Notes: generated by a model not told the origin, from the sequence alone. 64,000 nt of DNA from a virus (IMGVR_UViG_3300027808_000017:1-64000); one strand, 5' to 3'; counted from the stretch's first letter, positions 7,444 to 57,264 are shown. Translations and numbers: made by a program.

Positions 7444-7468
7444 CAATAAATGGATTAGGGTATATAAT
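7440..7468 (+). promoter_or_regulatory. sigma70-type early promoter (family member)
   Basis: TTGACA (overlaps stop of upstream gene)-17-TATAAT; UTR AGACTCTTAGACAGTAAAGAAAAGGAAACGAA. Confidence 0.65.
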
Positions 7469-7500
7469 AGACTCTTAGACAGTAAAGAAAAGGAAACGAA

Positions 7501-7878
7501 ATGTCAAACGAATTAAAATCTTGGGAAGAAATGTCTGCACTAGAGCAGGCCCAATGTACATATTGGGATATGTACAAGGATGCTTACGGCGTTCGCCCCC
7601 GCGGTATTGACACTTCTGATTGGACCCTTAGGGATTTTGAAGCAGAGTTTGCTTCATTGGCTACTGCTATTGAACGTATGGAAACTCTACGTAAAATTGC
7701 TGAGGCAGAGACTATCGCCAAATTTGAGCAACACGTGACCAACACTATATGCATGGGTGCTCGGAATCGTGAGACCGCACTTAATTGGATCATGGATGCT
7801 AGCAACGCCAATGGTGACTGGGAGTACTTTTGTTTTATTGAAGGGTTACCTTATAGCTACTTCAGAAAAGCGGCCTAA
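7501..7878 (+). CDS. hypothetical early protein
   Basis: 125 aa. Confidence 0.5.
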   Translation: MSNELKSWEEMSALEQAQCTYWDMYKDAYGVRPRGIDTSDWTLRDFEAEFASLATAIERMETLRKIAEAETIAKFEQHVTNTICMGARNRETALNWIMDASNANGDWEYFCFIEGLPYSYFRKAA

Positions 7879-7880
7879 GG

Positions 7881-7909
7881 TTGACAATAAATAGATTTGG
7901 GTATATAAT
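7881..7909 (+). promoter_or_regulatory. sigma70-type early promoter (family member)
   Basis: TTGACA-17(ATAAATAGATTTGGGTA)-TATAAT. Confidence 0.65.
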
Positions 7910-7938
7910 ACTTGTATTGATTGATTAAAGGAGTTGAA

Positions 7939-8211
7939 ATGTCTGCACTAGTTGAATACACATTGGAACTGTACAAATCTGACAAACGTGTTACGGGCGG
8001 TAAGCGTCTTGTCACTAAAGAAGAATTTGCCCCTGTCACTAGAGCCTACATCAAGGCTGTGATTGAGTCAAAAACTAAGTTGGGTTTCATTGTTGAACCC
8101 CATGAGACTTATGTTACCAAACGCAACATGATGACCGGTAAAACATATCAGGAACGTTATGATACACCGTATTTCTGTTCACCCTCTAGCGAATCTTTTT
8201 GGAGCAATTAA
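7939..8211 (+). CDS. hypothetical early protein
   Basis: ATG 7939 after AAAGGAG; track ORF began at upstream TTG. Confidence 0.5.
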   Translation: MSALVEYTLELYKSDKRVTGGKRLVTKEEFAPVTRAYIKAVIESKTKLGFIVEPHETYVTKRNMMTGKTYQERYDTPYFCSPSSESFWSN

Positions 8212-8213
8212 TC

Positions 8214-8387
8214 ATGGCAGGTAAAGCAAAATCAATATATCTCACAGTAACCCCTAAGGGTCAATTACAAAGTGTTTTCAATAGGGTGTTCTTTGATGCT
8301 AAGTCCTACAATGAGTACATCAAGTCGGACGAATGCAAAGAAAAATATCCTGCTGACAAATTCGATATCATCAAAGAAACATATTAA
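8214..8387 (+). CDS. hypothetical small protein
   Basis: MAGKAKSIYL...; GGAG 11 nt upstream. Confidence 0.4.
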   Translation: MAGKAKSIYLTVTPKGQLQSVFNRVFFDAKSYNEYIKSDECKEKYPADKFDIIKETY

Positions 8388-8396
8388 GGAATAATC

Positions 8397-9125
8397 ATGC
8401 CTGGATTTGTAGATGTTACTGGTTGGTCTAAACAAGAAATTCAACGTCTTGGTCACGAGGATGACGATACACCTGATACAAAAACAGTATTCCGTGTTAA
8501 AAAGGAACCTAATATTAATTTCCAAGCTGATGATGTTTGGGCGGCTGCTTGTCAGGCTCAACAAGTCAATGGCAGTTATGTTAAACTCGGGGATGAAACT
8601 CAAAACACCAATCGTCAAATTATGTTTAGACTGTTGGCAGACACTACCCAAATTACCGATGAAAATCGTGTACAGGGTACAAAGGTTCGTCAATACTATC
8701 AAGCATTCACTTTCAAAATCCTTAAGGGAATTGCATTAAATGATTTTGATAACAATGCAATGCTTATCAGTAATCGCAATGTTATTACCAAACAGTATGA
8801 CGTAGCAGTCATTGCCAGCTTGCCACAAAGCTATGAACGAGGTTCTAAGCGAGCCAGTGTTACTCAACGGATTAAATTTGCTACTGGTGGTTATATCGGT
8901 CAACCCAGTGACAAAGTTACATTGACTATTGAACTATTGAAAGATGTTTATAGTCAGAAGTGGAATACAAATTATTTTACAGGTATTACAACTGATGACC
9001 AAATAGTATTTTTTGCTTATAATGGTACTGGTAAATTAGATATCGGTGATACATACACAATTCAGGGTACTGTTAAAGCGCACCGCGACAACAGTACGCA
9101 ACTAAATCGGGTAAAGTTTGTTTGA
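8397..9125 (+). CDS. hypothetical protein
   Basis: 242 aa; RBS AAGGAATAATC ATG. Confidence 0.5.
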   Translation: MPGFVDVTGWSKQEIQRLGHEDDDTPDTKTVFRVKKEPNINFQADDVWAAACQAQQVNGSYVKLGDETQNTNRQIMFRLLADTTQITDENRVQGTKVRQYYQAFTFKILKGIALNDFDNNAMLISNRNVITKQYDVAVIASLPQSYERGSKRASVTQRIKFATGGYIGQPSDKVTLTIELLKDVYSQKWNTNYFTGITTDDQIVFFAYNGTGKLDIGDTYTIQGTVKAHRDNSTQLNRVKFV

Positions 9126-9150
9126 CAATATATCCGGTTCGTAGTATACT
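9122..9150 (+). promoter_or_regulatory. sigma70-type promoter
   Basis: TTGACA-17-TATACT. Confidence 0.5.
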
Positions 9151-9182
9151 ACAATCATTCTTTCACACACAGGAGTTATACA

Positions 9183-9313
9183 TGAGTCATTTTATCGCAT
9201 TCATTCTTGGTATCGTAGTCGCAACAGTAGGCTTTACTGGTGTTGCTAAAATGCTTGACAACGGTGTCAACAAGACCAAAACAATTGTACAAGAACAAGC
9301 TAAGGAACAGTAA
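9183..9313 (+). CDS. small single-pass membrane protein
   Basis: MSHFIAFILGIVVATVGFTGV... after AGGAGTTATAC. Confidence 0.45.
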
Positions 9314-9408
9314 TGGTAATGTCTTGGCTTGCTGTACTACTGTTAGTGTTTGTGGGTGAACCTATGTTGGGATTAATTTTGGCATTTCTTATTTTGATGA
9401 TGGAGTAA
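9313..9408 (+). CDS. small hydrophobic peptide (31 aa)
   Basis: MVMSWLAVLLLVFVGEPMLGLILAFLILMME; not in ORF track. Confidence 0.3.
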   Translation: MVMSWLAVLLLVFVGEPMLGLILAFLILMME

Positions 9409-9412
9409 TAAT

Positions 9413-9559
9413 ATGAATGATGAATTGAAAGCACTAGTAATCAGTGCAGGTGCACCTAAAGACTTGCTTAATGAATTTTGGTTCAACATCTTTTGCGAGA
9501 AATTCGCTGATGTATTGTTGACGCAAGCCGAACAAGAAATGTTAGGAGCTAACAAATGA
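9413..9559 (+). CDS. small protein (48 aa)
   Basis: MNDELKALVISAGAPKDLLNEFWFNIF...; ATGA overlap with next ORF. Confidence 0.35.
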   Translation: MNDELKALVISAGAPKDLLNEFWFNIFCEKFADVLLTQAEQEMLGANK

Positions 9560-9681
9560 AAAAATATTTAAGCACAGATTTTATTATACCATTCTTGTGG
9601 TTCATCATACTGCAACCTTTGATTTTCTTCTTTACTATGTTTGTTTTTTTCTCGGCAGTGTATAATAGTATTTGGAGCTAA
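9556..9681 (+). CDS. small membrane peptide (41 aa)
   Basis: MKKYLSTDFIIPFLWFIILQPLIFFFTMFVFF... Confidence 0.35.
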   Translation: MKKYLSTDFIIPFLWFIILQPLIFFFTMFVFFSAVYNSIWS

Positions 9682-9684
9682 ACA

Positions 9685-11022
9685 ATGAGTGCAAGTTGGA
9701 TTAATAAATTAAACGAGAGCGACAGCCGCCTTCACAAAGAAGATGTGATTTTGCAGGCGCTTGAAGCAAGTGTCCTAGGCAGTCGTAATAGTCAGATTTT
9801 CTTGGGCTTTACTAACGCCTGTTATAATCCCTATGTTACATTTGGTATTCGTCAAGTGCCCGATACTGTAGGTATTGTTGACGCAGAAAATCCCTGGGAT
9901 GAATTCAATACGTTGATGTATCAACTTGGCCAGCGCAAGTTGACAGGTCATGCCGCACGTGATGCTGTACAAAATATGTCTGAACGATTTGACAGTATTG
10001 AATGGAACACATTCCTAGCACCTGTATTGCGTAGAGACTTACGTGCGGGTATCAGTGATAAGACAATCAATAAGATTTGTAAAGGTACTGAATATGAAGT
10101 ACCAATCTTTGGTTGTCAATTAGCAACTAACAGTGAAGGTCGTCCAGAGATGCAAGGTATCAAACGTCTTGAGCCTAAACTTGACGGCGTTCGTGTGTTG
10201 TTGACCGCTATCCCTGATGAAGATGGCAATATTGTCACTATTTGTTTCAGTCGCAATGGTAAACAGTTTGACAACTTTGGTCATATTGAAAATCAAGTGC
10301 GTGAGAACTTTGTAAAACTTACTCATAAAGCCGCAAGTAGTAACTTAAGCATGGGCTTTGTAATGGATGGTGAAGTGATTGGTAATACATTCCAAGAACT
10401 TATGCGACAAGCACGCCGCAAGACTGACGTACAAGCAGAGGATAGTGTGTTTAATGTATTTGACATTATACCAGTAGCAGCCTTCCGTGAGGGTCATTGG
10501 AATGCACAACTACACAAACGCATTACTATTTTAGAAGATATGCGTAGTATCATTGATGACATGCCTAATGTTGAATTGTTACCACATATCATGGTTGACT
10601 TGGATACAGCGGCAGGTAAAGATCAATTAGAACGATATGCCAAGGATCAAGTTAATGCAGGATTTGAAGGCATTATGATTAAAAATGTTGATGCGCCATA
10701 TGTTTGTAAACGTAGTACAGATTGGATGAAGTGGAAACCAGTTATTACCGTTGACTTAGAAGTTATTGGTATTGAAGAAGGTACCGGAAGAAATAAAGGA
10801 CGACTTGGAGCACTGGTTTGTGAGGGTCAAGATGACGGAAAGCACATTACTGTTAATGTTGGTAGTGGGTTCTCTGATACAGATAGAGATAGTTATTGGA
10901 ATGATAGCAATCACATCATTGGACGCACAGCCGAAATCTTATGTGATGTAGTGACACAAAATCGTGATGGTACATATAGTTTGCGCTTTCCACGATTTGT
11001 TAGATTTAGGGATGATAAATGA
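9685..11022 (+). CDS. ATP-dependent DNA ligase
   Basis: adenylation motif I (KxDG) in EPKLDGVRVLL; 445 aa; GGAG RBS. Confidence 0.85.
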   Translation: MSASWINKLNESDSRLHKEDVILQALEASVLGSRNSQIFLGFTNACYNPYVTFGIRQVPDTVGIVDAENPWDEFNTLMYQLGQRKLTGHAARDAVQNMSERFDSIEWNTFLAPVLRRDLRAGISDKTINKICKGTEYEVPIFGCQLATNSEGRPEMQGIKRLEPKLDGVRVLLTAIPDEDGNIVTICFSRNGKQFDNFGHIENQVRENFVKLTHKAASSNLSMGFVMDGEVIGNTFQELMRQARRKTDVQAEDSVFNVFDIIPVAAFREGHWNAQLHKRITILEDMRSIIDDMPNVELLPHIMVDLDTAAGKDQLERYAKDQVNAGFEGIMIKNVDAPYVCKRSTDWMKWKPVITVDLEVIGIEEGTGRNKGRLGALVCEGQDDGKHITVNVGSGFSDTDRDSYWNDSNHIIGRTAEILCDVVTQNRDGTYSLRFPRFVRFRDDK

Positions 11023-11228: not shown

Positions 11229-11231
11229 AGA

Positions 11232-16324: not shown

Positions 16325-16353
16325 TTGACACTAAATCATTTTGGTGCTATACT
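16325..16353 (+). promoter_or_regulatory. sigma70-type promoter
   Basis: TTGACA-17-TATACT. Confidence 0.5.
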
Positions 16354-17017: not shown

Positions 17018-18048
17018 AATACATATTGCTTGCGGTGATGCTGGCCCTAACAGCATGTGCTAGCACTACTGAGGCTGTAAGAACTTCAAGCGATAGTCCC
17101 GATGCTGGGGTCATACGTGTTCTCGGCACAGGATCAACTAAAGAAGAGGCAAAGAATAACGGCTTCACTACTGCTATCGAAATTGCTGTTGGTTCTGCAA
17201 TTCTTTCACACAAAGATGTCCGTTCCGATAAACTTATACGTGATGACATAGTGAAATACAATGCAGGTTACGTTGATAATTATAAAATCATTGACGAGAC
17301 AAAAACAAGCGGTGGTTACTCATTGTTGATGGATGTTCATGTTAAGAGCAGTCGCATACATGAACGATTATTGAGTGGGGGCGGTGACGAGAAAAATGTC
17401 AACGGTGATAAATTGGCTACTCAATATGACACATATCGTGCCCAACAAGAATCAGCCGATAAACTCATTGATGTGTTAATACAAGATTGGCCCGAAAAAG
17501 CCTTTACTATCAAACAAGGTAAACAAGAATTTAGTATTAATGAAAAACGTGTGTCTGTATTACGAATTCCAATTGAAATGAATATGAACTATAGCTATAT
17601 TATGGCATTGGATGAGTCTCTTAAAAAGATTAACCAAAAGAAAACATATTCAGATTTAAAAATTGGTATTGCAGTTAAAGCACCCGATGATTGGGTATTC
17701 GGTAGAACCAATGGATATTTCTTTGATGACATTCAACGTATAAAACAATTCCAACAAGGGTTTAATGATAACTTTTGGATTCAAGTTCATTTAAAAGATA
17801 TTAATGGTAATTTACTGTATTCTCAGTGTTTTGAACATGGAAGAAGTTTTTCATACCAAACAACTAAGGCATTTATTTTACAAGGTAATAACTCCGTAGA
17901 TTCTAACATTGAAATTGAACTAAATTCAAAACTATCCAAGACATTGCGCCAAGCATATAGTGTAGAAATGGTTCCCTCTAGAGTTTGTATCAACAAAATA
18001 TACGAAACTATACCTCTGCTAAAATGTCCCCCGCTAAACAAAAAATGA
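17014..18048 (+). CDS. lipoprotein
   Basis: MKYILLAVMLALTACAS lipobox; ATGA-coupled. Confidence 0.55.
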   Translation: MKYILLAVMLALTACASTTEAVRTSSDSPDAGVIRVLGTGSTKEEAKNNGFTTAIEIAVGSAILSHKDVRSDKLIRDDIVKYNAGYVDNYKIIDETKTSGGYSLLMDVHVKSSRIHERLLSGGGDEKNVNGDKLATQYDTYRAQQESADKLIDVLIQDWPEKAFTIKQGKQEFSINEKRVSVLRIPIEMNMNYSYIMALDESLKKINQKKTYSDLKIGIAVKAPDDWVFGRTNGYFFDDIQRIKQFQQGFNDNFWIQVHLKDINGNLLYSQCFEHGRSFSYQTTKAFILQGNNSVDSNIEIELNSKLSKTLRQAYSVEMVPSRVCINKIYETIPLLKCPPLNKK

Positions 18049-18059
18049 TAAGTAATAAT

Positions 18060-19283
18060 ATGACCGAAGAATCTAAAATAAATTATTGTCACTTTTGTGG
18101 GAACAGCAAAGAAATTGTAAAAAAACTTGTTGTTAGTGAGAAGGTTGCTATATGCAATGAGTGCGTGGAACTATGTCAGAATCTAATCAATGATGAAGTA
18201 GAGCCAGAAAATCCGATTGAACCTAATCGTGATCCGGAGGCCATCAAAGAATATCTTGATATGCACGTTGTTGGTCAAGAAGATGCTAAGATAGTTTTGA
18301 GCGTTGCTGTTGCCAATCATTATAAGCGCATCAACAATCCACCAAAAGATATTGAAATACAAAAAGGTAATGTGTTGATTGTCGGGCCTACAGGAAGTGG
18401 TAAAACATTGCTTGCTAAGACAGCCGCAAAATATCTTAAAGTGCCCTTCATTGTTGCTGATGCTACGAGTTTGACAGAAGCCGGGTATGTTGGAGATGAT
18501 GTTGAATCAATGATTAGTATGTTGATTCATGCCGCAGGTGGTGATGTAAAATTAGCCGAGCGTGGTATTATATTTGTTGATGAAATTGACAAGATTGCAC
18601 GTAAAGGTGAAAGTGCAAGTATCACCCGTGACGTATCAGGTGAAGGTGTTCAACAAGCATTGCTCAAAATGGTAGAAGGTAGTACCGTTCGTATTCCCAA
18701 AGAGGGTGGTCGTAAACATCCTGGTGGCGATATGAGTGAAATCAATACCAAAGATATATTGTTTATTGCCGGTGGCGCATTTGTTGGTCTTAAAGACATT
18801 ATTGCTAATCGTATGAATGGTACAAGTATTGGATTTAATGCTACTATCACTGACAGCAAAGTTGAAGGTGATTTGACAAAAGTCAGTCCTGATGACTTAA
18901 CCAAATATGGAATGATTCCTGAGTTCATTGGACGTTTTACTACTACAGTAAGTATCCAAGAATTGTCTAAGAAACAATTGGTTCATATTTTGACAGATGT
19001 AAAGAACAATTATATCAGTCAATACAAGTATTTGCTAAGTTTGGATAATATCAATTTATCTTTTACTAAAGAAGCCCTTGAACAAATTGCTGAGAATACA
19101 CTAACATTAAAGACCGGAGCACGTGGTTTACATACTGAGATTGAACGTGTTTTAATGTGTCATATGTTCTATACCAAGCAATACAAAGAAAATAATATAA
19201 CTATGCTAAATATAGATGTGGGTCAAATTTTAAATCCCACACCAATATATGACGAAAAAAGGAAGACAGGTACTAGTAACTGA
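18060..19283 (+). CDS. clpX: ATP-dependent Clp protease ATP-binding subunit ClpX
   Basis: N-terminal C4 zinc finger CHFCG...CNEC; Walker A GPTGSGKTLLAKT; ClpX-like length; start set at MTEESKINYCHFCG (track ORF starts further upstream). Confidence 0.85.
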   Translation: MTEESKINYCHFCGNSKEIVKKLVVSEKVAICNECVELCQNLINDEVEPENPIEPNRDPEAIKEYLDMHVVGQEDAKIVLSVAVANHYKRINNPPKDIEIQKGNVLIVGPTGSGKTLLAKTAAKYLKVPFIVADATSLTEAGYVGDDVESMISMLIHAAGGDVKLAERGIIFVDEIDKIARKGESASITRDVSGEGVQQALLKMVEGSTVRIPKEGGRKHPGGDMSEINTKDILFIAGGAFVGLKDIIANRMNGTSIGFNATITDSKVEGDLTKVSPDDLTKYGMIPEFIGRFTTTVSIQELSKKQLVHILTDVKNNYISQYKYLLSLDNINLSFTKEALEQIAENTLTLKTGARGLHTEIERVLMCHMFYTKQYKENNITMLNIDVGQILNPTPIYDEKRKTGTSN

Positions 19284-19470
19284 TGGTAATGTTGAAAAAG
19301 CATTACGTAAGTTTAAGAAAAAAATTGCAGAGCAAGGTCTACTGCAAGAAGTCCGCGACCGTCAAGAGTTCGTTAAACCCACAGTCAAACGCAAAATTGC
19401 CAAGAGCAAAGCAAAGAGTAGATGGAAGAAACATCTACGAGACCAAGAATTACCCAAAAAACTATATTAA
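19249..19470 (+). CDS. rpsU: 30S ribosomal protein S21
   Basis: VLVTDGNVEKALRKFKKKIAEQGLLQEVRDRQEFVKPTVKRK aligns with bacterial S21 ([43 protein letters not shown]); overlaps clpX 3' end. Confidence 0.75.
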   Translation: MTKKGRQVLVTDGNVEKALRKFKKKIAEQGLLQEVRDRQEFVKPTVKRKIAKSKAKSRWKKHLRDQELPKKLY

Positions 19471-19573
19471 CCTAAATAGTTGTATATATTGCACAATCAT
19501 GTAAAATATATACTGTAGTAGATGCCTAACGGGTCTATTACAACACAATCTTGCTTTAACAAAGGAGAAAATT

Positions 19574-21490
19574 ATGAGCAAAGTAATCGGTATCGACCTA
19601 GGTACCACAAATTCATGTGTAGCCGTCATTGAAAACGGAATCCCCAAAGTAATTGAAAACAGCGAAGGTGCTAGAACTACACCCTCAATCGTTGCCTATG
19701 CCAACGATGAGATTCTTGTAGGTGCTAGTGCTAAACGTCAAGCAGTTACTAATCCAAAAAATACAATCTACGCCGCAAAGCGACTGATTGGTCGTAAATT
19801 CAAAGAAGAGGCTGTACAAAAAGATATTAACTTGATGCCGTATACCATCGTTGAAAATGACAATGGTGATGCATGGGTTCAGTTAAACGATAATAAGTTA
19901 GCACCCCCGCAGATTTCAGCGGAAGTCTTACGCAAGATGAAAAAGACTGCGGAAGATTATCTAGGTCATGAAGTTACACAAGCAGTTATTACTGTTCCCG
20001 CTTATTTTAATGATAGTCAAAGACAAGCGACAAAAGATGCAGGTAAAATTGCAGGCTTGGAAGTATTGCGTATCATTAACGAACCCACAGCAGCCGCATT
20101 AGCGTATGGTGTAGATAAACAGGAAAAGCGTGACCGTAAAGTTGCTGTATATGACTTAGGTGGTGGTACCTTTGACGTATCAATCATTGAGATTGCCAAC
20201 GTTGATGGTGACACACAAGTTGAAGTATTGTCAACAAATGGCGATACATTCTTGGGTGGTGAAGACTTTGACCAACGCATCATGGACTACTTGATTAGTG
20301 AATTCAAAAAGGATTCAGGAGTCGATTTAAGTAAAGACATGCTAGCACTGCAACGACTAAAAGAAGCCGCAGAAAAGGCTAAGATTGAGTTGTCAAGTAC
20401 AGCACAAACAGATGTTAACTTACCATATGTAACAGCAGATGCTAGCGGTCCTAAGCACATGAACATTAAGTTGTCACGTAGCAAATTGGAACAGTTAGTT
20501 GATGAATTGATTCAACGCAGTATTCAACCATGTAAGACAGCTATGGCTGATGCTAAGATTTCAATAAGTGATATTGACGAGGTTATTCTTGTTGGTGGTA
20601 TGACACGTATGCCTAAAGTACAAGAAATGGTTGAATCATTTTTTGGTAAAGCACCTCGCAAGGACGTTAACCCGGATGAGGCAGTTGCCGCTGGTGCCGC
20701 TATTCAGGGTGATGTATTAGGTGGTGGACGCACAGATGTTTTATTGCTTGATGTTACTCCATTGAGTCTTGGCATTGAAACAATGGGTGGTGTGATGAGT
20801 AAGTTGATTCAAAAGAATACAACTATTCCTACTAAACAAAGTCAAACATTCAGTACAGCAGAAAACAATCAACAAGCGGTTACTATTAAAGTATTCCAAG
20901 GTGAACGTGAAATTGCACAATACAACAAGTTGCTAGGTGATTTTAACTTAGATGGAATTCCACCAGCACCAAAAGGTATGCCTCAAATCGAAGTTACATT
21001 TGATATTGATGCTAACGGCATTATGCACATCGGTGCAAAGGACAAAGGTACTGGTAAGGAAAACAAAATCACTATTAAATCAAACAGTGGTTTGAGTGAA
21101 TCAGAGATTCAAGAAATGGTTAAAGATGCTGAATTGAATGCTGAATCTGACAAGAAAGCCCGTGAATTAATTGAGGCACGTAATGGTGCAGAATCAACAT
21201 TGTATGGATTCAAACAAGACTTTAATAAGTACAGTGACAAAGTTACTGAAGAAGAAAAAACTAAAGCCGAAGAAGCAATCAAAGCAGTTGAAGAAGCAAT
21301 CAACGGGGATGACCCAACCGTTATCCAAGATAGTATTCCTAAATTATATGAGGCAATTGGTCCAATCACTAAAGCTAAAAGTGATGAAGAAGCCAAGAAA
21401 AAGGCTGAAGAGGCAACTAAGACTACAGAAGCACCAAAAGATGACAATGTAGTTGATGCAGAAGTTAAAGAGTCACCGGAGACTGTTTAA
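19574..21490 (+). CDS. dnaK: chaperone DnaK (Hsp70)
   Basis: [18 protein letters not shown]..., full-length Hsp70 (638 aa); RBS AAAGGAG. Confidence 0.9.
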
Positions 21491-25519: not shown

Positions 25520-26107
25520 ATGAGTCTAGTCCCAATCGTCATTGAACAAACAAGCAAAGGTGAGCGTAGTTATGATATCTACAGCCGTCTATTGCGTGAC
25601 CGTGTAATTTTACTTGAGGGTGAAGTACATGACCAAATGGCAAATCTTATTGTTGCCCAATTGCTATTCCTAGAATCAGAGGGTGACAAGGATATTTCAA
25701 TGTATATCAATAGTCCCGGCGGTAGTGTGACAGCAGGTATGGCAATCTATGATGCTATGCAATTCGTTAAGCCTGATATTCATACAATTGTAATGGGTCA
25801 GGCATGTTCTATGGGTAGTCTACTCGCACAATCAGGTGCACCCGGTAAACGTTTTATGTTGCCCAATGCAAGGCACATGATTCATCAACCTTCAGGTGGT
25901 GCAAGAGGTCAAGCAACTGATATGCTGATTCAGGTAAATGAAATACTTGAAATGAAAAAGAACCTAACAGGAATCTACACTAAGCACAATTCAAAAGGTA
26001 AAACTTTTGATGTACTCCAAGCTGATATGGAACGTGATAATTTTATGAGTGCTCAACAAGCATTTGACTATGGACTAGTAGACGAAATAGTTACAAAGCG
26101 AGGTTAA
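25520..26107 (+). CDS. clpP: ATP-dependent Clp protease proteolytic subunit ClpP
   Basis: [27 protein letters not shown] (Ser), HQP...GQATD (His/Asp) catalytic triad context; 195 aa. Confidence 0.9.
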
Positions 26108-27559: not shown

Positions 27560-27588
27560 TTGACAATAAATCACTTTGGGTATACAAT
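27560..27588 (+). promoter_or_regulatory. sigma70-type early promoter (family member)
   Basis: TTGACA-17(ATAAATCACTTTGGGTA)-TACAAT. Confidence 0.6.
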
Positions 27589-27617
27589 AGAGGCTTCTGT
27601 AGAGAAAAGGAGTTTTT

Positions 27618-27818
27618 ATGTCTTACGTTGTTTTCAAGCATAACAAAGAATACGGTCCTCGACAAGGTCTCGAGGGTCCGTTTCACTATCCCAATGGTCG
27701 TGTTCTGTATTACGATCCTAAAGCAGGTGAGTACTACGATCCTCGTACCGACTTTTACGTTGACCGTGACGAGGTCTCAGACCTGCAAAATTCTATCTTT
27801 GACATCCTGAAAGGTTAA
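27618..27818 (+). CDS. hypothetical early protein
   Basis: 66 aa; RBS AAAGGAG. Confidence 0.5.
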   Translation: MSYVVFKHNKEYGPRQGLEGPFHYPNGRVLYYDPKAGEYYDPRTDFYVDRDEVSDLQNSIFDILKG

Positions 27819-28044: not shown

Positions 28045-28073
28045 TTGACAATAAATGGCTTTGGGTATATAAT
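28045..28073 (+). promoter_or_regulatory. sigma70-type early promoter (family member)
   Basis: TTGACA-17(ATAAATGGCTTTGGGTA)-TATAAT; UTR AGAATCTTAAACAGTAAAGAAAAGGA. Confidence 0.65.
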
Positions 28074-28106
28074 AGAATCTTAAACAGTAAAGAAAAGGAC
28101 TTGCAA

Positions 28107-28379
28107 ATGCGTACACCAACTATAATTTATGGTTTGAAAAATTCTCAGAAAATTCGCATCATTTTCAAAGGTGATGGTTCTGAGAATGAAATTGGATTGT
28201 ACATGACAGTACAACAATCGGTGACAATGTTTGCTACCGCTCTCTCACGTAGCCTAGCTTGGGATGCATTATTGCAATTGTCATCTATACGTCAGGAAGC
28301 ACAAAAATATAACGAACCGATTCCAACAGGGATCGGCACTACAATTCGTGGCAAGCAAATTCAAGTTGATTTGGTCTGA
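28107..28379 (+). CDS. hypothetical early protein
   Basis: ATG 28107 (MRTPTIIYGL) after UTR/RBS; track ORF extends upstream through promoter. Confidence 0.5.
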   Translation: MRTPTIIYGLKNSQKIRIIFKGDGSENEIGLYMTVQQSVTMFATALSRSLAWDALLQLSSIRQEAQKYNEPIPTGIGTTIRGKQIQVDLV

Positions 28380-28562: not shown

Positions 28563-28591
28563 TTGACGATAAATCGTTTTGGGTATATAAT
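28563..28591 (+). promoter_or_regulatory. sigma70-type early promoter (family member)
   Basis: TTGACG-17(ATAAATCGTTTTGGGTA)-TATAAT. Confidence 0.6.
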
Positions 28592-28625
28592 AGAATCTTA
28601 AACAGTAAACAACAGGAGTTAGCAA

Positions 28626-29093
28626 ATGGGTACACGTTCACTTATCGCAGTTGTTCATGGTGATAACTACAAAACAGTTTATTGTCATTGGGATGGCTAT
28701 CTGTCACACAATGGTCGTATTTTGCAAAAACACTATGATTCACCTAAAGCAAACAATCTTGTTGCAATGGGCAATATCTCTAGTCTCAAAGCTAACATTG
28801 GTAGAAAACACCCCTTCAGTGCGTTTGACATTCCCGGCATGTCTCCAAGTGCATGGGAAAATAAGTATGGCAACATGACTACATTCTATGGTCGTGACCG
28901 CGGAGACGAAGGTCAAGAGTTTGTCACACATACCAGCAAAGAATCACTAATTGAATCATTCAATGAGTCTTGGTGCGAGTTTGCATATATTATGAAAGAT
29001 GACATTTGGTATGTTATGTTTCAAGGTGATGAGAATTTTTATTTGTTGTCAGAAGAATTGGTTAAACAAAAAGATACAGTAGAGGCAGTATAA
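28626..29093 (+). CDS. hypothetical protein
   Basis: 155 aa. Confidence 0.5.
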   Translation: MGTRSLIAVVHGDNYKTVYCHWDGYLSHNGRILQKHYDSPKANNLVAMGNISSLKANIGRKHPFSAFDIPGMSPSAWENKYGNMTTFYGRDRGDEGQEFVTHTSKESLIESFNESWCEFAYIMKDDIWYVMFQGDENFYLLSEELVKQKDTVEAV

Positions 29094-29422
29094 TGGAAGC
29101 AGTTGTCGAGACTACAGTCTGGAACGATAGCAATAACGCTAATCATACCTATCTACTTGATGGCACCAAAATGATTGCGTACATTAAAGTAGGCGACACT
29201 GCTCCCTTTTATTTTAAAAACCCAATCACCATTGACAAACGTGGTCGGAAGTTTCAAGCATTGAAAGTTAATCCTTTCAAAAAGATAAAAGAAAAATCAA
29301 CAATAATTAAAGTGTCCGGTAGTAAAGGTAATATATATAGTATTGATACGGAAGACAAAACATGTACGTGTCCGGGCTATATGTATCGTGGTAGTTGTAA
29401 ACACATTACGGAGTTAGTATGA
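29093..29422 (+). CDS. SWIM-type zinc-finger protein
   Basis: C-terminal CTCPGYMYRGSCKH = CxCxnCxH SWIM signature. Confidence 0.5.
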   Translation: MEAVVETTVWNDSNNANHTYLLDGTKMIAYIKVGDTAPFYFKNPITIDKRGRKFQALKVNPFKKIKEKSTIIKVSGSKGNIYSIDTEDKTCTCPGYMYRGSCKHITELV

Positions 29423-43664: not shown

Positions 43665-43880
43665 ATGGCAAAAGAAGAGGGTATTAAAATGGACGGCAAG
43701 GTAGTAGATGTACTACCTAATGCCGTTTTTAAAGTAGTAATGGAAGCTGGTCCTATCATAACAGGATACATCAGCGGCCGCATGCGTAAGCATGATATTA
43801 AAATTTTATTGGGTGATACTGTTGAAGTTGAATTCAGCCCATATGATTTGACTAAAGGTCGTATAACCCGTAGACGGTAA
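43665..43880 (+). CDS. infA: translation initiation factor IF-1
   Basis: 71 aa S1-like OB fold: [63 protein letters not shown] aligns end-to-end with bacterial IF-1. Confidence 0.85.
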
Positions 43881-50702: not shown

Positions 50703-52751
50703 ATGGCAATTTTAGGACAAGCAAACATATTAGTAGGAGTAGAAAATCAAGCTACTGGTAGTGATAGCATCTACACCGCATTCAATAAAGTAGTTGACAA
50801 CTTTGACACGTTATTCACCTATTCCAGCCCGTTCAATACATTTAATAGTGGTAACGGGATCACAGCAACCCCATTTAGTAGCAACGGATCAGTATTCTTT
50901 GAAAACACAGGAGTAACTAGTTTAATTGCCGGTACTGGAATCACTATATCATCTCAAACAGGAGAAATTGTTATTTCTTCTGCCGGTGGGGAGGGAATGT
51001 CAGGTGTCACTAGTGTTGGAATATCAAGTATTTCGTTAGATGTAAGTGATTCTCCTATCGTCAGTTCAGGATTAATTAGAGTAGAATTACCTACAATTGA
51101 AACAGGCCTTGGATTTGAACCGGGTGACTATATTACACCCGCACTTACCGTAGATGCATACGGTCGTATTACTAGTATTTCTAATACCTCTACGTCAGGT
51201 ACAGTAACCAGCATAGCACTAGATACAGTTGGTGATGGCATTGGCATAACCGGAGGTCCGATAACAGATAATGGAACGATTGTTATTACTAACACAGGCG
51301 TTACCAGAATAAATGCAGGAAATGGAATTGAATTAAGTGGTAGTACCGGAAACGTGACTATCAATTCTACACTTAGAGGTGTTGGTGTTGTTAGTAGAGT
51401 AGATGTTGATAGTACTACACTGACAGTACTGAACAGTCCAATAACATCATCAGGAACAATTACAGTTGATATTCCAGATGACATCTCGTTAGCTGGAAAT
51501 CTTATTGCAAATACTATCACTAGCAACTCCACAGCAACAATTACAGGTAATATTACTGTGGGTAATATTACCTCTACTGGTACAATTACTTCATTAGGTG
51601 GAAATATTTTATTAGGAGCTAATCTAGTAATTACTACCTTAAGTGGCACGGGCGGACCATCTAATATTCTTACTATTGGGTTTACTACTCAACCAAGAAT
51701 ACCGTTTGTACCAGGTGCTATCATTACCATTACCGGAACAACACCAACTACTTACAATGGATCTTACACAGTAATCACAGGTACTACAAGTGCAGTAACT
51801 GTGACTAGTTCAGTATCAACAGCAGTAGTTACAAAAGGTAGAATCATTGGTGGAGGTGATATAATTAGTAATGGATTTGTTACGGTATCTGCTAACATTA
51901 CTAGTGCAAACGTGATAGCTACTACAGCATTGCAGGCACCCAAAGTTAATATTACAGGTAATGTATCATCCTCTGCATGGGGTACAAGTGGAATAGGTTT
52001 AGTTGTGTCAGCAAATACATATACTGATGCCTCTACTGCAGGTTCAGGCACAGTCGCAAGTGCTTCAATCAACGTGATAAATATACCAACTATTACAGCA
52101 AGTAATCTTGCAGTAACCGTCACTAAAGCATCGTCATTATATATTGCAGGTGCACCTGCTGCCGGTGCTAATATTACATTAACCAATTCATATGCATTGC
52201 AAGTGGCTGCTGGGCCTGTACAGATTGATACATCTACTGCCGCAACATCAGCCACGACCGGCGCACTAAGAGTTGCCGGTGGTGTAGGTATCAGTGGTGC
52301 TTTATATGCAGGAGGCGGAATAGCTAGTGCAAACACTACATCCGGTTCTCTAGTGGTTACCGGTGGACTAGGTGTTAGTGGTGATACATATCACGGTGGT
52401 AGTGTCCTTATTTCAGGAACAGGCGGGCTAGGGTACGGAACTGGATCTGGTGGAACAGTTACGCAAGCTACAAGCCGAACAACCGGTGTAACTATTAATA
52501 AAACAAACGGTGCTATTGTTCTTATTTCCGGAGCAGGTTCTACCGGGTGGCAATCATTCACTGTGACTAATAGTACAGTGGTAGCTACTGATGTAGTTCA
52601 TGTTTCTCAAAAATCAGGTACGGATCTTTATCAAATATTTGTTACTGCTATAGCAGCCGGTAGCTTTCGAATAACATATGCAACTACTGCAGGCTCAACT
52701 ACTGAGCAACCGGTATTTAATTTCGCTGTCGTAAAAGCAGTAACAGCATAA
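50703..52751 (+). CDS. tail-fibre-like structural protein (Thr/Gly/Ser/Ile-rich repeats)
   Basis: 682 aa; repeated NTGVT(S/R)(L/I)xAGxGIxxSxxTGxVxI units. Confidence 0.5.
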   Translation: MAILGQANILVGVENQATGSDSIYTAFNKVVDNFDTLFTYSSPFNTFNSGNGITATPFSSNGSVFFENTGVTSLIAGTGITISSQTGEIVISSAGGEGMSGVTSVGISSISLDVSDSPIVSSGLIRVELPTIETGLGFEPGDYITPALTVDAYGRITSISNTSTSGTVTSIALDTVGDGIGITGGPITDNGTIVITNTGVTRINAGNGIELSGSTGNVTINSTLRGVGVVSRVDVDSTTLTVLNSPITSSGTITVDIPDDISLAGNLIANTITSNSTATITGNITVGNITSTGTITSLGGNILLGANLVITTLSGTGGPSNILTIGFTTQPRIPFVPGAIITITGTTPTTYNGSYTVITGTTSAVTVTSSVSTAVVTKGRIIGGGDIISNGFVTVSANITSANVIATTALQAPKVNITGNVSSSAWGTSGIGLVVSANTYTDASTAGSGTVASASINVINIPTITASNLAVTVTKASSLYIAGAPAAGANITLTNSYALQVAAGPVQIDTSTAATSATTGALRVAGGVGISGALYAGGGIASANTTSGSLVVTGGLGVSGDTYHGGSVLISGTGGLGYGTGSGGTVTQATSRTTGVTINKTNGAIVLISGAGSTGWQSFTVTNSTVVATDVVHVSQKSGTDLYQIFVTAIAAGSFRITYATTAGSTTEQPVFNFAVVKAVTA

Positions 52752-53203: not shown

Positions 53204-53230
53204 TTTGTTTCCTTATTGTAAATGGGTATA

Positions 53231-53254
53231 GGCGCCGTAGCGCCTTTTGTTATT
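53231..53254 (+). terminator. hairpin + T-run (plus-strand orientation) immediately 3' of a minus-strand gene
   Basis: GGCGC-CGTA-GCGCC TTTTGTTATT. Confidence 0.3.
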
Positions 53255-53636: not shown

Positions 53637-53750
53637 TTGTATTCCTTTAAAAAATATAGCTAGTTGAAAAAATATGCTTTTCAGCACAGTTATAATGATA
53701 ACACAAAGGGTTATTAATGTCAACCATTTGTGTTACCAAAATCTTTTTAA

Positions 53751-54161
53751 TTAACCCACAATGTAGGGCTTGTTCCATTTGCCGATGTGTACTTCAACAT
53801 ACCAACCTACGTTAAAATAGTCGGATTGGATATCGCTCTTGTCCCAATTACCATCGTTCATTGCTTCCATTACTTCGGTCAAGAATGCCTTAGCATCACC
53901 GTCATAGTGTTCATGGAACCAGTAAGGATTGATAGAATCGTAAGCATTTGTGTTAGGCTTGAAACCTTGTGCAACCTGATAAAAATTATTACCGCACACA
54001 CGATTAGAGTTTGCGATAAAGTCAATTTTACCTGACTTTAAGGTCAATGACAATGTAGAATGATGACGGACACTCAGTGAACCCTTGATACCATACTTGT
54101 TAAGAATGGATTTAACTTTAGGGGCGATTTCTGATTTACGTTCCTGAGACATATAAGCCAT
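53751..54161 (-). CDS. hypothetical early protein
   Basis: 136 aa downstream of family promoter. Confidence 0.5.
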   Translation of the reverse strand: MAYMSQERKSEIAPKVKSILNKYGIKGSLSVRHHSTLSLTLKSGKIDFIANSNRVCGNNFYQVAQGFKPNTNAYDSINPYWFHEHYDGDAKAFLTEVMEAMNDGNWDKSDIQSDYFNVGWYVEVHIGKWNKPYIVG

Positions 54162-54194
54162 TTGTTACTCCTTGTTTCGACTGTTTAAGATTCT

Positions 54195-54223
54195 ATTATA
54201 TACCCAAATCCATTTACTGTCAA
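54195..54223 (-). promoter_or_regulatory. sigma70-type early promoter (family member, minus strand)
   Basis: revcomp TTGACAGTAAATGGATTTGGGTA TATAAT + UTR AGAATCTTAAACAG. Confidence 0.65.
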
Positions 54224-54228
54224 CCGTT

Positions 54229-54360
54229 TTACTGTTCCATCGGATCATTAAGAATATATTCGGAAATATATTCTACTACAAAAGTTTTACCTTTGTGCAA
54301 TTTGAGATATTCACCTAGGGACTCTGCACTGCGAAAAATATAACTGTTAATGCGAAACAT
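54229..54360 (-). CDS. small early protein (43 aa, not in ORF track)
   Basis: MFRINSYIFRSAESLGEYLKLHKGKTFVVEYISEYILNDPMEQ after UTR ...TTGATTGATTAAAGGAGTGTAT. Confidence 0.4.
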   Translation of the reverse strand: MFRINSYIFRSAESLGEYLKLHKGKTFVVEYISEYILNDPMEQ

Positions 54361-54380
54361 ATACACTCCTTTAATCAATC

Positions 54381-54409
54381 AATAAAAGTATTATATACCC
54401 GAATCCATT
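54381..54409 (-). promoter_or_regulatory. sigma70-type early promoter (family member, minus strand)
   Basis: revcomp TTGACA-ATAAATGGATTCGGGTA-TATAAT. Confidence 0.65.
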
Positions 54410-54573
54410 TATTGTCAAATTTTGGCTAATTTCTTTTTAGTGTGTCAGAGTTCTAGGCCTATATCAGAATCGGTCCTAGAGCACCTGACACACAAATGAA
54501 TACTCAAGTATTCATTTTTATTAAGAAGTTATATATAAAAAAACCCTACAAGGTTAATACTTTACTTTTAGTT

Positions 54574-55641
54574 TCAAAAAGCATCGTACATGCGGTACAT
54601 GGTCTTTTCAACTCTTGTCAGTACAACAGTGGTACCGTTGTCTTTGAAAGTGAATTCACCTTTACGACCATCAACGTGAATCAATGCATCAGGCTTGAAG
54701 GTCTTCCAAATGTACTCACTATCCTTATCCTCAGGGTCACTGTCAAATTCAACTTCAACACCTTTTGGTTGCAGGGGATTACCTTGAAACTTGCCATCAC
54801 GGTTACCACTTTTAACTTCTTTACCGTTGTGTACAATTTTCAGTGTGTACTCGGTACCGTTATCAAACTCAGGTTTAGCGTTAAGCATTTCTAGCGCCTC
54901 TTGCGGAGATTCGTTATAGCGGTTCATTTCTTCAACAATTGACTTCAACATATCAAAATTGAATTCAGCAAACAAGCTACCAATATTTACCATGCTATCA
55001 ACATTTTTGAGGCTTGCATCCTTAAGATTGTCATAACAGTATTCACGGATGAATGGCTCATCCAATCCTTTGAAGTCTAGCATGTAGTAGATACGACCTG
55101 GACGATTACGCATGTGTGAATCAACACGCCACTTATCGTTACAGGTAATCATAAACAATTTCTTAGTTGGAAAGACACCATCCAACAATGTTAGAATTGA
55201 TTCTTGTTGGTCTTTATCATACGTCTTTTCAAACTCATCAAATAGAATAGCACAAGGCTGTTCAATGTTTTGAATGAATGTATTAAACTTATCACCGCAC
55301 CAAGGCTGATTGATAACGATTGTAGGGATTCCTTGCTTAGCCAATTGAATAGCAACATTCTTAGTAAGCAATGTTTTACCACTACCTTTTTCACCAGTCA
55401 TCATTACACCGGTTGCGTTATCACGATCCATAAAGGTACGGATAATCTTGTCAGTGTTCTTAAGACAATTTCCGTAGATTTTACCTGGAATAGCAAAGCC
55501 ATCAATATGTTCTAGGTACAACTCACCTGACATTTCATTAATTTTAACAACATAATTACCTGCAGGCAACATACGATGAATGTCCATTGCCTCATCACTG
55601 GCTACACGGTAGGTATTACCAGTCTTCAAAAAATAACTCAT
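54574..55641 (-). CDS. classic-clade AAA+ ATPase
   Basis: Walker A GEKGSGKTLL, Walker B ILFDEFE, sensor-2-like NRPGRIYY; 355 aa; RBS AAAGGA. Confidence 0.65.
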   Translation of the reverse strand: MSYFLKTGNTYRVASDEAMDIHRMLPAGNYVVKINEMSGELYLEHIDGFAIPGKIYGNCLKNTDKIIRTFMDRDNATGVMMTGEKGSGKTLLTKNVAIQLAKQGIPTIVINQPWCGDKFNTFIQNIEQPCAILFDEFEKTYDKDQQESILTLLDGVFPTKKLFMITCNDKWRVDSHMRNRPGRIYYMLDFKGLDEPFIREYCYDNLKDASLKNVDSMVNIGSLFAEFNFDMLKSIVEEMNRYNESPQEALEMLNAKPEFDNGTEYTLKIVHNGKEVKSGNRDGKFQGNPLQPKGVEVEFDSDPEDKDSEYIWKTFKPDALIHVDGRKGEFTFKDNGTTVVLTRVEKTMYRMYDAF

Positions 55642-55799
55642 TTCAATCCTTTAAAAAAAATTGTTCTATATTTGTTAACACTGACATTGTATTCAATACA
55701 AAACATACTCCGGCTGCATACCAGGAAAAAGAATATTTTTCAGAATCAATAATCCACTTAGCCGCCCAAATTGCAAATATTAGGTTAAGTATTATCATA

Positions 55800-55973
55800 T
55801 TATGAATTCAGTGTAGCAAATGGACTCATATCTTCTTCATTCGGTTCTATCTGCTCAAGTGTATCATACACCCACACGATAGGGATATCAAGAATTTTGG
55901 CAATTGTCGCAGGATGAACACCATCCTCGATCATCATTTCAATATCCAGCATTACATTAGTCATTTTGCTCAT
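55800..55973 (-). CDS. small acidic protein (57 aa, not in ORF track)
   Basis: MSKMTNVMLDIEMMIEDGVHPATIAKILDIPIVWVYDTLEQIEPNEEDMSPFATLNS. Confidence 0.35.
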   Translation of the reverse strand: MSKMTNVMLDIEMMIEDGVHPATIAKILDIPIVWVYDTLEQIEPNEEDMSPFATLNS

Positions 55974-56136
55974 TTTCTAACTCCTCAAGTCTATACTCTG
56001 CTAATTCATCAATCATGGTATCAATTAACACAAGGTGATCTTGTACAAAATTCATATCACCCAATGTATCAATCATTAGTTCTTTGGCTTCTTCTAATCT
56101 TTCGATTGCCAATTTCATTTTTTCTGCATTAGTCAT
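55957..56136 (-). CDS. small acidic coiled-coil protein (59 aa, not in ORF track)
   Basis: MTNAEKMKLAIERLEEAKELMIDTLGDMNFVQDHLVLIDTMIDELAEYRLEELENEQND. Confidence 0.35.
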   Translation of the reverse strand: MTNAEKMKLAIERLEEAKELMIDTLGDMNFVQDHLVLIDTMIDELAEYRLEELENEQND

Positions 56137-56348
56137 TTTGAATTACTCACTGTAGTTTTAAACAAAAATCCAAACAACACCGTAATGCCCCACGCCTGCA
56201 GCCAGGACACTTCACTAACCCCTGCAACGGCTCCAACCAAGCAACCATTCCAAAGCATGTACACCGGCCAACTTAGTAAGAAACTAAGTAACAATAGTCC
56301 TGCAATAGCAATGACAATTGCCCCAATCATAACAGCAATTTTTTCCAT
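56133..56348 (-). CDS. small 2-TM membrane protein
   Basis: MEKIAVMIGAIVIAIAGLLLLSFLLSW... Confidence 0.45.
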   Translation of the reverse strand: MEKIAVMIGAIVIAIAGLLLLSFLLSWPVYMLWNGCLVGAVAGVSEVSWLQAWGITVLFGFLFKTTVSNSK

Positions 56349-56353
56349 GATTA

Positions 56354-56626
56354 TTACTCCGAAAATTCGTACATGTATTGAGCAACGCTAGGATCCAACT
56401 TGATGAGGTCTTTAGCGGCACCAGTCAATGCACGATAACGGGCTTGCACTTGACTACGGGGCAGTTCGCCGTCACAGGAAAGATTCTCAGGGCTCAGTGC
56501 GGCATCAATACTTTGTGCAACACGTTTGCGACCCTCAGCCGTTTTAACTTCGTAGACCACAACGTTACCACTGAACAATGAATTCCAGCTGTTTTGCTGG
56601 GAGATGTATGCGTTAAGTGCTTTCAT
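56354..56626 (-). CDS. hypothetical early protein
   Basis: 90 aa. Confidence 0.5.
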   Translation of the reverse strand: MKALNAYISQQNSWNSLFSGNVVVYEVKTAEGRKRVAQSIDAALSPENLSCDGELPRSQVQARYRALTGAAKDLIKLDPSVAQYMYEFSE

Positions 56627-56659
56627 TTTTGATTCCTTTAATCAACTGTTTAAGATTAT

Positions 56660-56688
56660 ATTATATACCCGAATTGATTTATTGTCAA
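56660..56688 (-). promoter_or_regulatory. sigma70-type early promoter (family member, minus strand)
   Basis: revcomp TTGACAATAAATCAATTCGGGTA TATAAT. Confidence 0.65.
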
Positions 56689-56951
56689 GCCTGGTATGTA
56701 AAATAACTACGGATTTTGCTTTGGCGATTGGTGTGACTTTCGTTGAATTTTACTTCATAGCCTCGCTCACGGAGAGCAGTCATCAACACTGACAAGTCAC
56801 AGTCCTCTTCCAGGAATGCATTCTCACCCTTTTGATAACTGTATGTAGAGATTTTGTCGGCGATACCAAGTGACACCAACTTGGACTTTGCAATACGTGC
56901 CCAAGCATGACCAGGATCTGCAAAAACTTTGATGGAGATTTTTTTAGTCAT
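56685..56951 (-). CDS. hypothetical protein
   Basis: 88 aa; 3' end overlaps -35 of downstream promoter. Confidence 0.45.
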   Translation of the reverse strand: MTKKISIKVFADPGHAWARIAKSKLVSLGIADKISTYSYQKGENAFLEEDCDLSVLMTALRERGYEVKFNESHTNRQSKIRSYFTYQA

Positions 56952-56960
56952 GTTTGTTCC

Positions 56961-57203
56961 TTAGATGTAAAAACATTCACCACGCTTGTCGGCACCGATA
57001 GCATCATAGACACATTCACGAACCATAGTGTCCATTGCCTCACCGAACATGTCAGGATTAGAATCGGCCAAGTCACGCAATGCCTTGAAAGTCTGTTTCC
57101 ATGACAGATTTTGACTTTTGGCAGTTGTCACAATACCGTGAACAGCCATGTTACCTTCATCAGAGTACATAGCATAAGTGATATCAAGTGTGATTTTAGT
57201 CAT
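56961..57203 (-). CDS. hypothetical early protein
   Basis: 80 aa. Confidence 0.5.
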   Translation of the reverse strand: MTKITLDITYAMYSDEGNMAVHGIVTTAKSQNLSWKQTFKALRDLADSNPDMFGEAMDTMVRECVYDAIGADKRGECFYI

Positions 57204-57235
57204 TTCGTTTCCTTTTCTTTACTGTCTAAGATTCT

Positions 57236-57264
57236 ATTATATACCCAAAGCCATTTATTGTCAA
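57236..57264 (-). promoter_or_regulatory. sigma70-type early promoter (family member, minus strand)
   Basis: promoter+UTR (to ATG 57203) nearly identical over ~60 nt to the + strand copy at 7440-7503. Confidence 0.7.

Follow-up and report, generated by a model that had tools for sequence, protein, structure and literature searches.

A promoter-leader cassette at early genes of uncultured freshwater phages probably serves both expression and module shuffling

We analysed a 64,000-nucleotide (nt) stretch of viral DNA (IMGVR_UViG_3300027808_000017:1-64000, hereafter the window), in which about 16 copies of the sigma-70 promoter TTGACAATAAAT-N6-GGGTATATAAT are each followed by a conserved segment of 29-35 nt up to an ATG. 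The cassette consists of a short A-rich stretch 5' of the -35, the hexamers TTGACA and TATAAT separated by an unusually conserved spacer of 17 bp, a 6-nt discriminator, a purine- and A-rich unstructured leader of 23-28 nt, and a Shine-Dalgarno (SD) sequence 6-7 nt before the ATG. Cassettes head small ORFan genes in two oppositely oriented sets of early clusters, on the plus strand at 6.8-8.2 and 27.5-28.6 kb and on the minus strand at 54-57 and 62.6-63 kb, and they recur in more than 100 metagenomic phage contigs. We consider it probable that the class A and class B leaders found here are alleles of a portable cassette for early-gene expression and recombination, which resembles the PeSL elements of T4-like phages but mostly lacks their stem-loop.

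Thirteen window copies match the promoter family with at most three mismatches (chance expectation 0.00), and promoter variants lie at 2118, 6792, 42958 and 57648(-). Four plus-strand copies in the first 20 kb and six minus-strand copies have perfect hexamers (12/12) and a 17-bp spacer, and further copies match at 11/12. The class A leader CTTGTATTGATTGATTAAAGGAG is exact at 7178-7200 and 7911-7933 (chance expectation 0.00), in the plus-strand cassettes at 7148-7209 (ATG at 7207) and 7881-7941 (ATG at 7939). It occurs with one mismatch at 54388-54366(-), in the minus-strand cassette at 54358-54418 (ATG at 54360), and with two mismatches at 6822-6844, in a variant plus-strand cassette at 6792-6853 (ATG at 6851) that combines the promoter TTGACAATAAAT..TGCTATACT with the leader ACGTGTATTGATTAATTAAAGGAG. 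An earlier note on this DNA had placed class A leaders behind these four promoters, and the leaders there are indeed exact or differ at one or two positions, against 0.00 expected; the minus-strand promoter exists but lies at 54418-54390 rather than at 54381. Another class-A-like leader (ACGTGTATTGATTGATTAA..AAAGGAAAG), absent from the earlier note, follows a TGn-TATACT promoter (TTGACAATAAAT..TGATATACT) at 57648(-), in the cassette at 57582-57648 (minus strand, ATG at 57584).

The class B consensus leader AGAATCTTAAACAGTAAAGAAAAGGA is exact at 28074-28099 (chance expectation 0.00), in the plus-strand cassette at 28045-28109 (ATG at 28107). With one or two mismatches it recurs at 57235-57210(-), 7469-7494 and 28592-28617, in the cassettes at 57201-57264 (minus strand, ATG at 57203), 7440-7503 (plus strand, ATG at 7501) and 28563-28628 (plus strand, ATG at 28626, variant leader ..AAACAACAGGAG). 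Class B had been assigned to six promoters, of which these four (7440, 28045, 28563 and 57236(-)) hold, but at 54195(-) and 56660(-) the match to the class extends over only the first ~15 nt of the leader. The former belongs to a minus-strand cassette at 54159-54223 (ATG at 54161) with a divergent class B leader (AGAATCTTAAACAGTCGAAACAAGGAG); the latter, at 56624-56688 (minus strand, ATG at 56626), is a B/A hybrid with a class B 5' half (ATAATCTTAAACAGT) and a class A 3' half (TGATTAAAGGA; class-A-like TTGATTAAAGGA). A second hybrid at 57761-57818 (minus strand, ATG at 57763) joins the class A discriminator ACTTGT to a B-like ..AACAGTAAGGA. Two cassettes with a TACAAT -10 carry other leader types, namely AGAGGCTTCTGTAGAGAAAAGGAG at 27560-27620 (plus strand, ATG at 27618) and AGCATCTTAAACATTTGAAAGGG at 62910-62970 (minus strand, ATG at 62912).

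Over the 64 positions that run from the -35 to the end of the ATG, the segment at 7440-7503 agrees with the reverse complement of 57201-57264 at 61. The near-identity of this inverted pair had been pointed out before, and the likeness stops at the ATG. The copies at 6792 and 57648(-) form a second inverted pair, which shares a ACGTGTATTGATT leader. Both belong to a promoter sub-family with the same -35, ATAAAT and an extended -10 (TGnTATACT), whose members lie at 6792-6820(+), 57648-57620(-), 58263-58235(-) and 16325-16353(+).

Related loci were gathered mainly by scanning IMG/VR for exact matches to the 23 specified promoter bases, the remainder being reached through proteins of cassette-driven genes. 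The scan yielded at least 120 loci (numbered L001 onwards) on contigs of 4-367 kb, and 259 cassette copies from them after removal of near-duplicates. Among 185,579 prokaryotic genomes, the same motif was found in just three contigs of metagenome-assembled genomes, which are probably mis-binned phage; it is not a host feature. Across the 259 copies, information content at positions outside the search pattern was 0.3-1.5 bits between the -10 and the start codon, and ~0 upstream of -5 from the -35 and 3' of the ATG. These sharp edges show that the conserved unit spans ~65-70 bp and that, as the earlier note had held, conservation extends beyond the -10 and the ribosome-binding site.

Leaders in the family fall into several types: A (motif ATTGATTGA, 28 of 259 copies), B (TTARACAGT, 83), C (TTATTCAGT, 35), D (ATAGACAGT, 22), a leaderless form with the ATG at the seventh nucleotide (26), and other leaders (65). 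Type A leaders are 23-25 nt long and types B and D 26-28 nt. The conserved element ends in an SD sequence, GGA(G/C/A), and the start codon, the distance from GGA to the ATG being 6-7 nt. In alignment, A and B are homologous variants that differ by 3 nt in length, A being the shorter, and hybrids between them occur. The two classes first described are therefore real but represent a local sample of a multi-allelic series, with at least four leader alleles plus the leaderless form. Stops in all three frames of class A (TGA, TGA, TAA) were given no weight as a signal, since upstream genes end before the promoter and the sequence is AT-rich.

In the 26 leaderless copies the ATG is exactly the seventh nucleotide after TATAAT. 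They head at least four unrelated gene families (a 5'-3' exonuclease, a GIY-YIG protein and two ORFans among them), and the coding signal, seen as third-codon-position variation, begins at this ATG. Transcription most likely starts, judging from this arrangement, at the seventh nucleotide after TATAAT. On that basis genes with the ATG at this position would be leaderless, and the first six nucleotides of the segments initially described as 5' untranslated regions (ACTTGT, AGAATC) would belong to the promoter as its discriminator, leaving true leaders of 23-28 nt.

Two such promoters lie in the window, at 2118-2155(+) and 62676-62639(-), and the form also occurs in L014, L026, L028, L035, L048, L050 and others. 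The first, a relative of the promoter family, has perfect hexamers but another spacer; the 5'-3' exonuclease gene behind it has its ATG at 2153, the seventh nucleotide after TATAAT, so this mRNA is predicted to be leaderless, and L026 and L087 have the same arrangement. The second precedes the ATG at 62641, likewise the seventh nucleotide, of a gene for a GIY-YIG domain protein (62303-62641(-), Pfam E = 2e-5). Homologues of this protein stand behind the promoter in 22 loci, in 20 of them at 78-100% amino-acid identity, and homing-type nucleases of this kind could contribute to module mobility. Further promoters with the ATG at the seventh or eighth nucleotide lie at 60798-60761(-) and 58263-58225(-). 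It should be noted that these predicted leaderless early mRNAs occur in a phage with its own S21 and IF-1.

Exchange at the cassettes can be followed among relatives, and in its simplest form it replaces one leader allele by another. The gene starting at 7939 (g7939; other genes are denoted likewise) has a class A leader in the window and in L066, whereas in L118 and L023, with 93% amino-acid identity and identical flanks, its leader is of class B; in L118 the upstream flank, promoter and coding sequence are otherwise unaltered beside the leader swap. Similarly, g28107 has class B in the window and class A in L001, L042 and L075, and g7207 is leadered in the window and leaderless in L048 and L120. 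Such replacement is also seen between near-identical strains. Contigs L124-L128 are 99.6-100% identical to the window over 25.6-32.1 kb, and L129 is ~99.7% identical over 25.6-29.3 kb, save for a patch of ~290 nt at 28057-28345 with ~70% identity. The patch starts in the variable triplet of the promoter spacer, changes class B to class A, and ends inside g28107, so that L129 has a divergent allele of this gene; such a patch is a recombination tract with its anchor in the cassette.

Whole modules are exchanged as well, and gene content and order vary among relatives around the cassettes. In L075, a class A leader, preceded by the flank that lies upstream of the 7881 cassette, is fused to the coding sequence of g28107. 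Modules of the plus-strand clusters are joined in a single orientation to modules of the minus-strand clusters in L004, L015, L036, L048, L120 and others, and the overlaps between high-scoring segment pairs equal the cassette in L004, L015, L075 and L120. In L138 a hydrolase gene takes the place of window positions 58520-57819, in a replacement whose end coincides exactly with the 57818 cassette. Locus L139, which encodes the exact g57203 protein, has the order g6851, g7207, a 54223-type cassette, g57203, ORF56951, a novel small open reading frame (ORF), a class B cassette and g7501. Compared with the window, three genes are inserted at the 7440 cassette, with a direct cassette copy on each side, and g57203 and ORF56951 in the insert come from the window's minus-strand cluster. 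ORF56951 (56685-56951(-), 88 aa) has no cassette of its own in the window. Its homologues stand behind differing cassettes or beside plus-cluster modules in L036, L048, L049, L053, L097, L120 and L139, and it looks like an especially mobile module.

The earlier note had proposed the inverted copies at 7440 and 57264 as recombination substrates. Module shuffling and leader swaps bear out such a role for the cassettes, but inversion between these two copies was not found on 18 contigs with the exact g7501 protein, nor was the reciprocal junction, in which the upstream flank of 57264 is joined to g7501, found on the g7501-carrying contigs. The 18 contigs represent five gene contexts, and all that reach far enough upstream have g7207. 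A separate rearrangement occurs in two different samples, in L001 (2740-3590) and L002 (541-1392), where window 27.5-29.1 kb (plus strand) is joined through two or three small genes to 60.8->48.0 kb in reverse, with junction points in the window at 29098 and 60768. Relative to the window this is an inversion of ~29.1-60.8 kb, and L043 (171 kb) keeps the window order.

The known elements that the cassette most resembles are the PeSLs, which comprise an AT-rich region, a stem-loop, a sigma-70 promoter, an SD sequence and an ATG, and lie among ORFans in hyperplastic regions (PMC2839356, PMC4122927). They mediate modular shuffling in the T4-like phages RB49/phi1, PST/T4 and nt-1/KVP40 (Arbiol et al. 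2010, PMC2839356; Comeau et al. 2014, PMC4122927), and in RB49/phi1 the mapped PeSL crossovers fell between the -10 and the SD or ATG (PMC2839356). Recombination between flanking PeSL copies also gives rise to excised mini-circles. The cassettes likewise have a near-perfect sigma-70 early promoter and a conserved downstream segment ending in SD and start codon, and many copies stand between small ORFans in variable regions. Copies are also found at the boundaries of insertions, deletions, replacements and displacements between related phages, where crossovers lie in the stretch from the -10 to the ATG. A cassette copy stands on either side of inserted modules, and L139 is the product predicted by the PeSL integration model.

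In contrast to PeSLs, a stem-loop or terminator accompanies only 3 of the ~16 window copies and 32 of 259 copies family-wide. In the window, an intrinsic terminator hairpin with a T8 run (~6756-6789) stands just upstream of the 6792 cassette only, and hairpins around the -35 occur only at 7148 (7137-7171(+), 9 bp, -6.7 kcal/mol, z = -2.8) and at 57264(-) (57274-57240(-), 10-11 bp, -8.5 kcal/mol, z = -4.0); the 7440 and 28045 copies have none. Family-wide, an upstream terminator with a T-run was found in 19 copies. An inverted repeat of 8-11 bp (ATACCCAAA...TTTGGGTAT) around the -35 was found in 13, including L015, L033, L050, L065 and others; its stems show compensatory changes (e.g., CACCCAATAC/GTATTGGGTG), and these -35-enclosing hairpins resemble the RB49 PeSL stem-loops that overlap the promoter. 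A hairpin between upstream flank and spacer was rejected as a general feature (mean complementarity 4.15, barely above the 4.04 of permuted sequences); a distinct 13-copy subset does have it. The cassettes also differ from PeSLs in their far more uniform spacer and leader, in having discrete leader alleles including a leaderless form, and in their carriers, which are uncultured freshwater phages with no INPHARED nucleotide match. Since the features of a PeSL are present except for the stem-loop, the cassette appears to work like a PeSL, as a stem-loop-poor variant in a different clade.

Folding tests point to open leaders. The 13 window leaders tested have fold energies of -0.7 to -7.2 kcal/mol, and 11 of them fold more weakly than their shuffles (z > 0). 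Family-wide, the first 50 nt of the transcript average -3.0 kcal/mol (z = +0.66, with 82% above 0), compared with -7.5 kcal/mol (z = -0.38) for coding controls. RNAalifold predicted 0 base pairs across 50 diverse leaders, and an Rfam scan of the window returned 0 matches. A bias towards openness is expected of an efficient ribosome landing site. In common with A/U-rich translational enhancers and with initiation regions that lack structure (e.g., the leader of T7 gene 10 and enhancers bound by S1), the leaders have a short A/U-rich unstructured stretch 5' of a strong, optimally spaced SD. They differ from those elements in that exact sequence alleles, and not composition, are conserved, and any enhancer activity here is putative.

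At the near-consensus T5 N25 promoter, escape limits productive initiation, the initially transcribed sequence strongly modulates escape, with purine-rich sequences escaping well, and a G at -5 prolongs the life of the open complex (Hsu & Han 2025, PMC12464699). The cassettes are similar to the strong early promoters T5 N25 and T7 A1, at both of which the initially transcribed sequence controls escape, in their consensus or near-consensus hexamers, 17-bp spacer and 6-bp discriminator, and in a purine-rich +1 to +20 region with conservation that reaches into the transcribed part. Purines make up 65% of positions +1 to +20 vs 52-53% in controls. At -5, G is present in 114 of 233 copies (types B, C and D), as in T5 N25, and C in 86 (class A and others); the class B discriminator AGAATC also resembles AGATTC, which we take to be that of N25. 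Class A departs from N25 in its C at -5 and lower purine content. By analogy we infer that, with perfect hexamers, the +1 to +20 region may be selected for escape as well as for translation.

Taken as a mechanism, the segment from the -10 to the ATG would be conserved for two functions at once. The discriminator and initially transcribed sequence, acting as DNA and as nascent RNA, would set the life of the open complex and the escape from an over-tight consensus promoter; as mRNA, the leader would offer ribosomes an open place to land. Many genes have near-identical copies on either side, so the recombination machinery of phage or host could use these copies as short homology patches, and the outcome would be the insertion, deletion and translocation of modules and the replacement of leader alleles, that is, PeSL-like shuffling. 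Phage morons, autonomous promoter-gene-terminator units inserted between genes, offer a partial parallel. They too are small accessory genes with their own promoter that are gained and lost as units between conserved neighbours, but they lack one shared promoter-leader sequence that itself supplies the recombination homology.

Several points weigh against this reading. Although the distance to a cassette is no more than 100 nt for 42 of 172 rearrangement ends, and cassettes with this margin make up ~6% of the window, the loci were chosen via the promoter or cassette-gene proteins, so the enrichment is inflated. Any process that moves whole transcription units would also put boundaries at cassettes. 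L139 is a single metagenomic contig for which misassembly at a repeat is not fully excludable, though cross-cluster joins like its own occur in six other loci. The large L001/L002 rearrangement has its junction at other promoters and not at an A/B cassette. The role in promoter escape is drawn from T5 N25 by analogy, and class A leaders are only ~60% purine; the transcription start at the seventh nucleotide is deduced from sequence. Finally, the spacer and the 5' part of the leader (CTTARACAGT, ATTGATTGA) are conserved beyond what is known to be read by sigma-70 or the ribosome, and an additional trans-acting factor may read them.

Such a factor is central to an alternative that we regard as unlikely, in which the leader alleles are sites for a RegA/RegB-type repressor or endoribonuclease, or for a ribosome remodelled by the phage's own S21 or IF-1, which the earlier note had named as possible binders, giving class-specific timing or preferred translation of early phage mRNAs. 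The sequence 5' of the SD is conserved in discrete alleles, far past the needs of SD pairing, S21 and IF-1 genes are present on this phage, and leadered and leaderless forms exist side by side. GGAG is found in 21 of 28 class A copies, and GGAC or GGAA in 48 of 83 class B copies, a difference that a GGAG-specific nuclease would discriminate. However, orthologues switch alleles freely, even between near-identical strains, which argues against gene-specific regulatory coding. The leaders show no structure or covariation, nothing ties S21 or IF-1 to them, and tblastn with T4 RegA and RegB returned only chance matches (E > 0.3), a weak negative.

It is quite unlikely that the similarity reflects history only, with recent duplicates homogenised by gene conversion and the leader selected only at the SD and -10. 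Copies within the genome are near-identical ahead of unrelated genes, and exchange between copies is demonstrated, both as this explanation would have it. However, among orthologous cassette genes with only 35-55% protein identity, the promoters are 89% and the leaders 72% identical, compared with 65% for random cassette pairs and 51% for shuffled sequences. The same alleles persist in diverged genomes, from many samples and of many sizes; conversion within one genome is insufficient to hold a sequence constant clade-wide, and the sequence is constrained across the clade. Leader length and the GGA-to-ATG spacing are tightly constrained as well, and folding energy is biased to openness relative to shuffles.

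We judge it very unlikely that a phage repressor or activator uses the region from the -10 to ~+15 as its DNA operator for switching early transcription off or on, with A and B as different operators. The class A variant ACATGT forms a perfect 12-bp palindrome (AATACATGTATT) across the -10 and +1, and ACTTGT gives 5-bp arms; the promoter spacer is likewise unusually conserved, and the type of discriminator is tightly linked to the following 9 nt. However, B, C and D have no dyad symmetry, common descent of the alleles can explain the linkage, alleles are interchangeable at the same gene, and a candidate regulator was not identified. A structured cis-regulatory RNA (a riboswitch, thermometer or ribosomal-protein leader) has sequence conservation alone in its favour and is effectively refuted by leaders of just 23-28 nt, by minimum free energies mostly weaker than those of shuffles and by the negative RNAalifold and Rfam results. 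The translational-control or RNA-binding role first suggested for the leaders has no support.

The window has a GC content of 37% and encodes a 5'-3' exonuclease, an ATP-dependent ligase, ClpX, DnaK, a ClpP-like protease, S21 (19283-19504) and IF-1 (43665-43880); no tRNAs and no structural genes were found within it. The genes for ClpX, S21, DnaK (Hsp70, E = 5e-260) and the ClpP-like protease are clustered (17985-21490 and 25520-26107), and together with IF-1 they form an unusually rich set of proteostasis and translation genes for a phage. Nine proteins from leadered cassette genes (78-155 aa) are without a Pfam match. Searches of INPHARED by megablast, blastn and tblastn with window regions and an 81-nt cassette gave no match or only chance partial ones, and the proteins of S21 and of a 497-aa ORF had no match there; a cultured relative is absent from that collection. 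The ligase has 31-35% identity to its counterparts in SPO1-like and Schizo-T4 phages alike, and PHROGs and Pfam searches with the large ORFs gave no taxonomic placement. Dozens of freshwater metagenome contigs hold exact copies of window proteins.

Two other sequence elements were observed. The motif AAAGTAnTAC, often within a palindrome (AAAGTAATACTTT), occurs nine times vs 1.1 expected, with sites at 6731, 6945, 27425 and 42948 on the plus strand and at 58016, 59582 and 63011 on the minus strand. It often lies just 5' of terminators or cassettes, recurs 5' of cassettes in many loci, and could be another promoter class or a regulator site. A perfect inverted repeat with a 12-bp stem (AGGTAATATTAC...GTAATATTACCT) lies at 51545-51573(-), inside a 682-aa ORF at 50703-52751.

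A more far-reaching idea, which we hold to be a long shot, is that the leader alleles and invariant spacer are recognition sites of a dedicated phage system. This might be a ribosome modified by S21 and IF-1 that prefers leaders of 23-28 nt and leaderless mRNAs, or active mobilisation, for example by the conserved leaderless GIY-YIG nuclease, that targets cassettes and moves early modules within or between co-infecting jumbo phages.

A shared promoter-leader sequence that acts both as an expression unit and as a linker for shuffling had previously been described only in cultured T4-like phages. Our analysis would extend the PeSL principle to a large uncultured clade of freshwater phages, some of whose contigs measure 300-367 kb, and to a form without the stem-loop. 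The replacement of leader and gene alleles between ~99.7%-identical strains indicates that the process is ongoing and traceable in nature. The cassette also provides a 29-nt exact-match tag that retrieves members of the clade and marks their early genes, which are probably ORFans for host takeover or anti-defence. The predicted, conserved leaderless early mRNAs in a phage with its own S21 and IF-1 would offer a concrete entry to the role of phage-borne translation factors.

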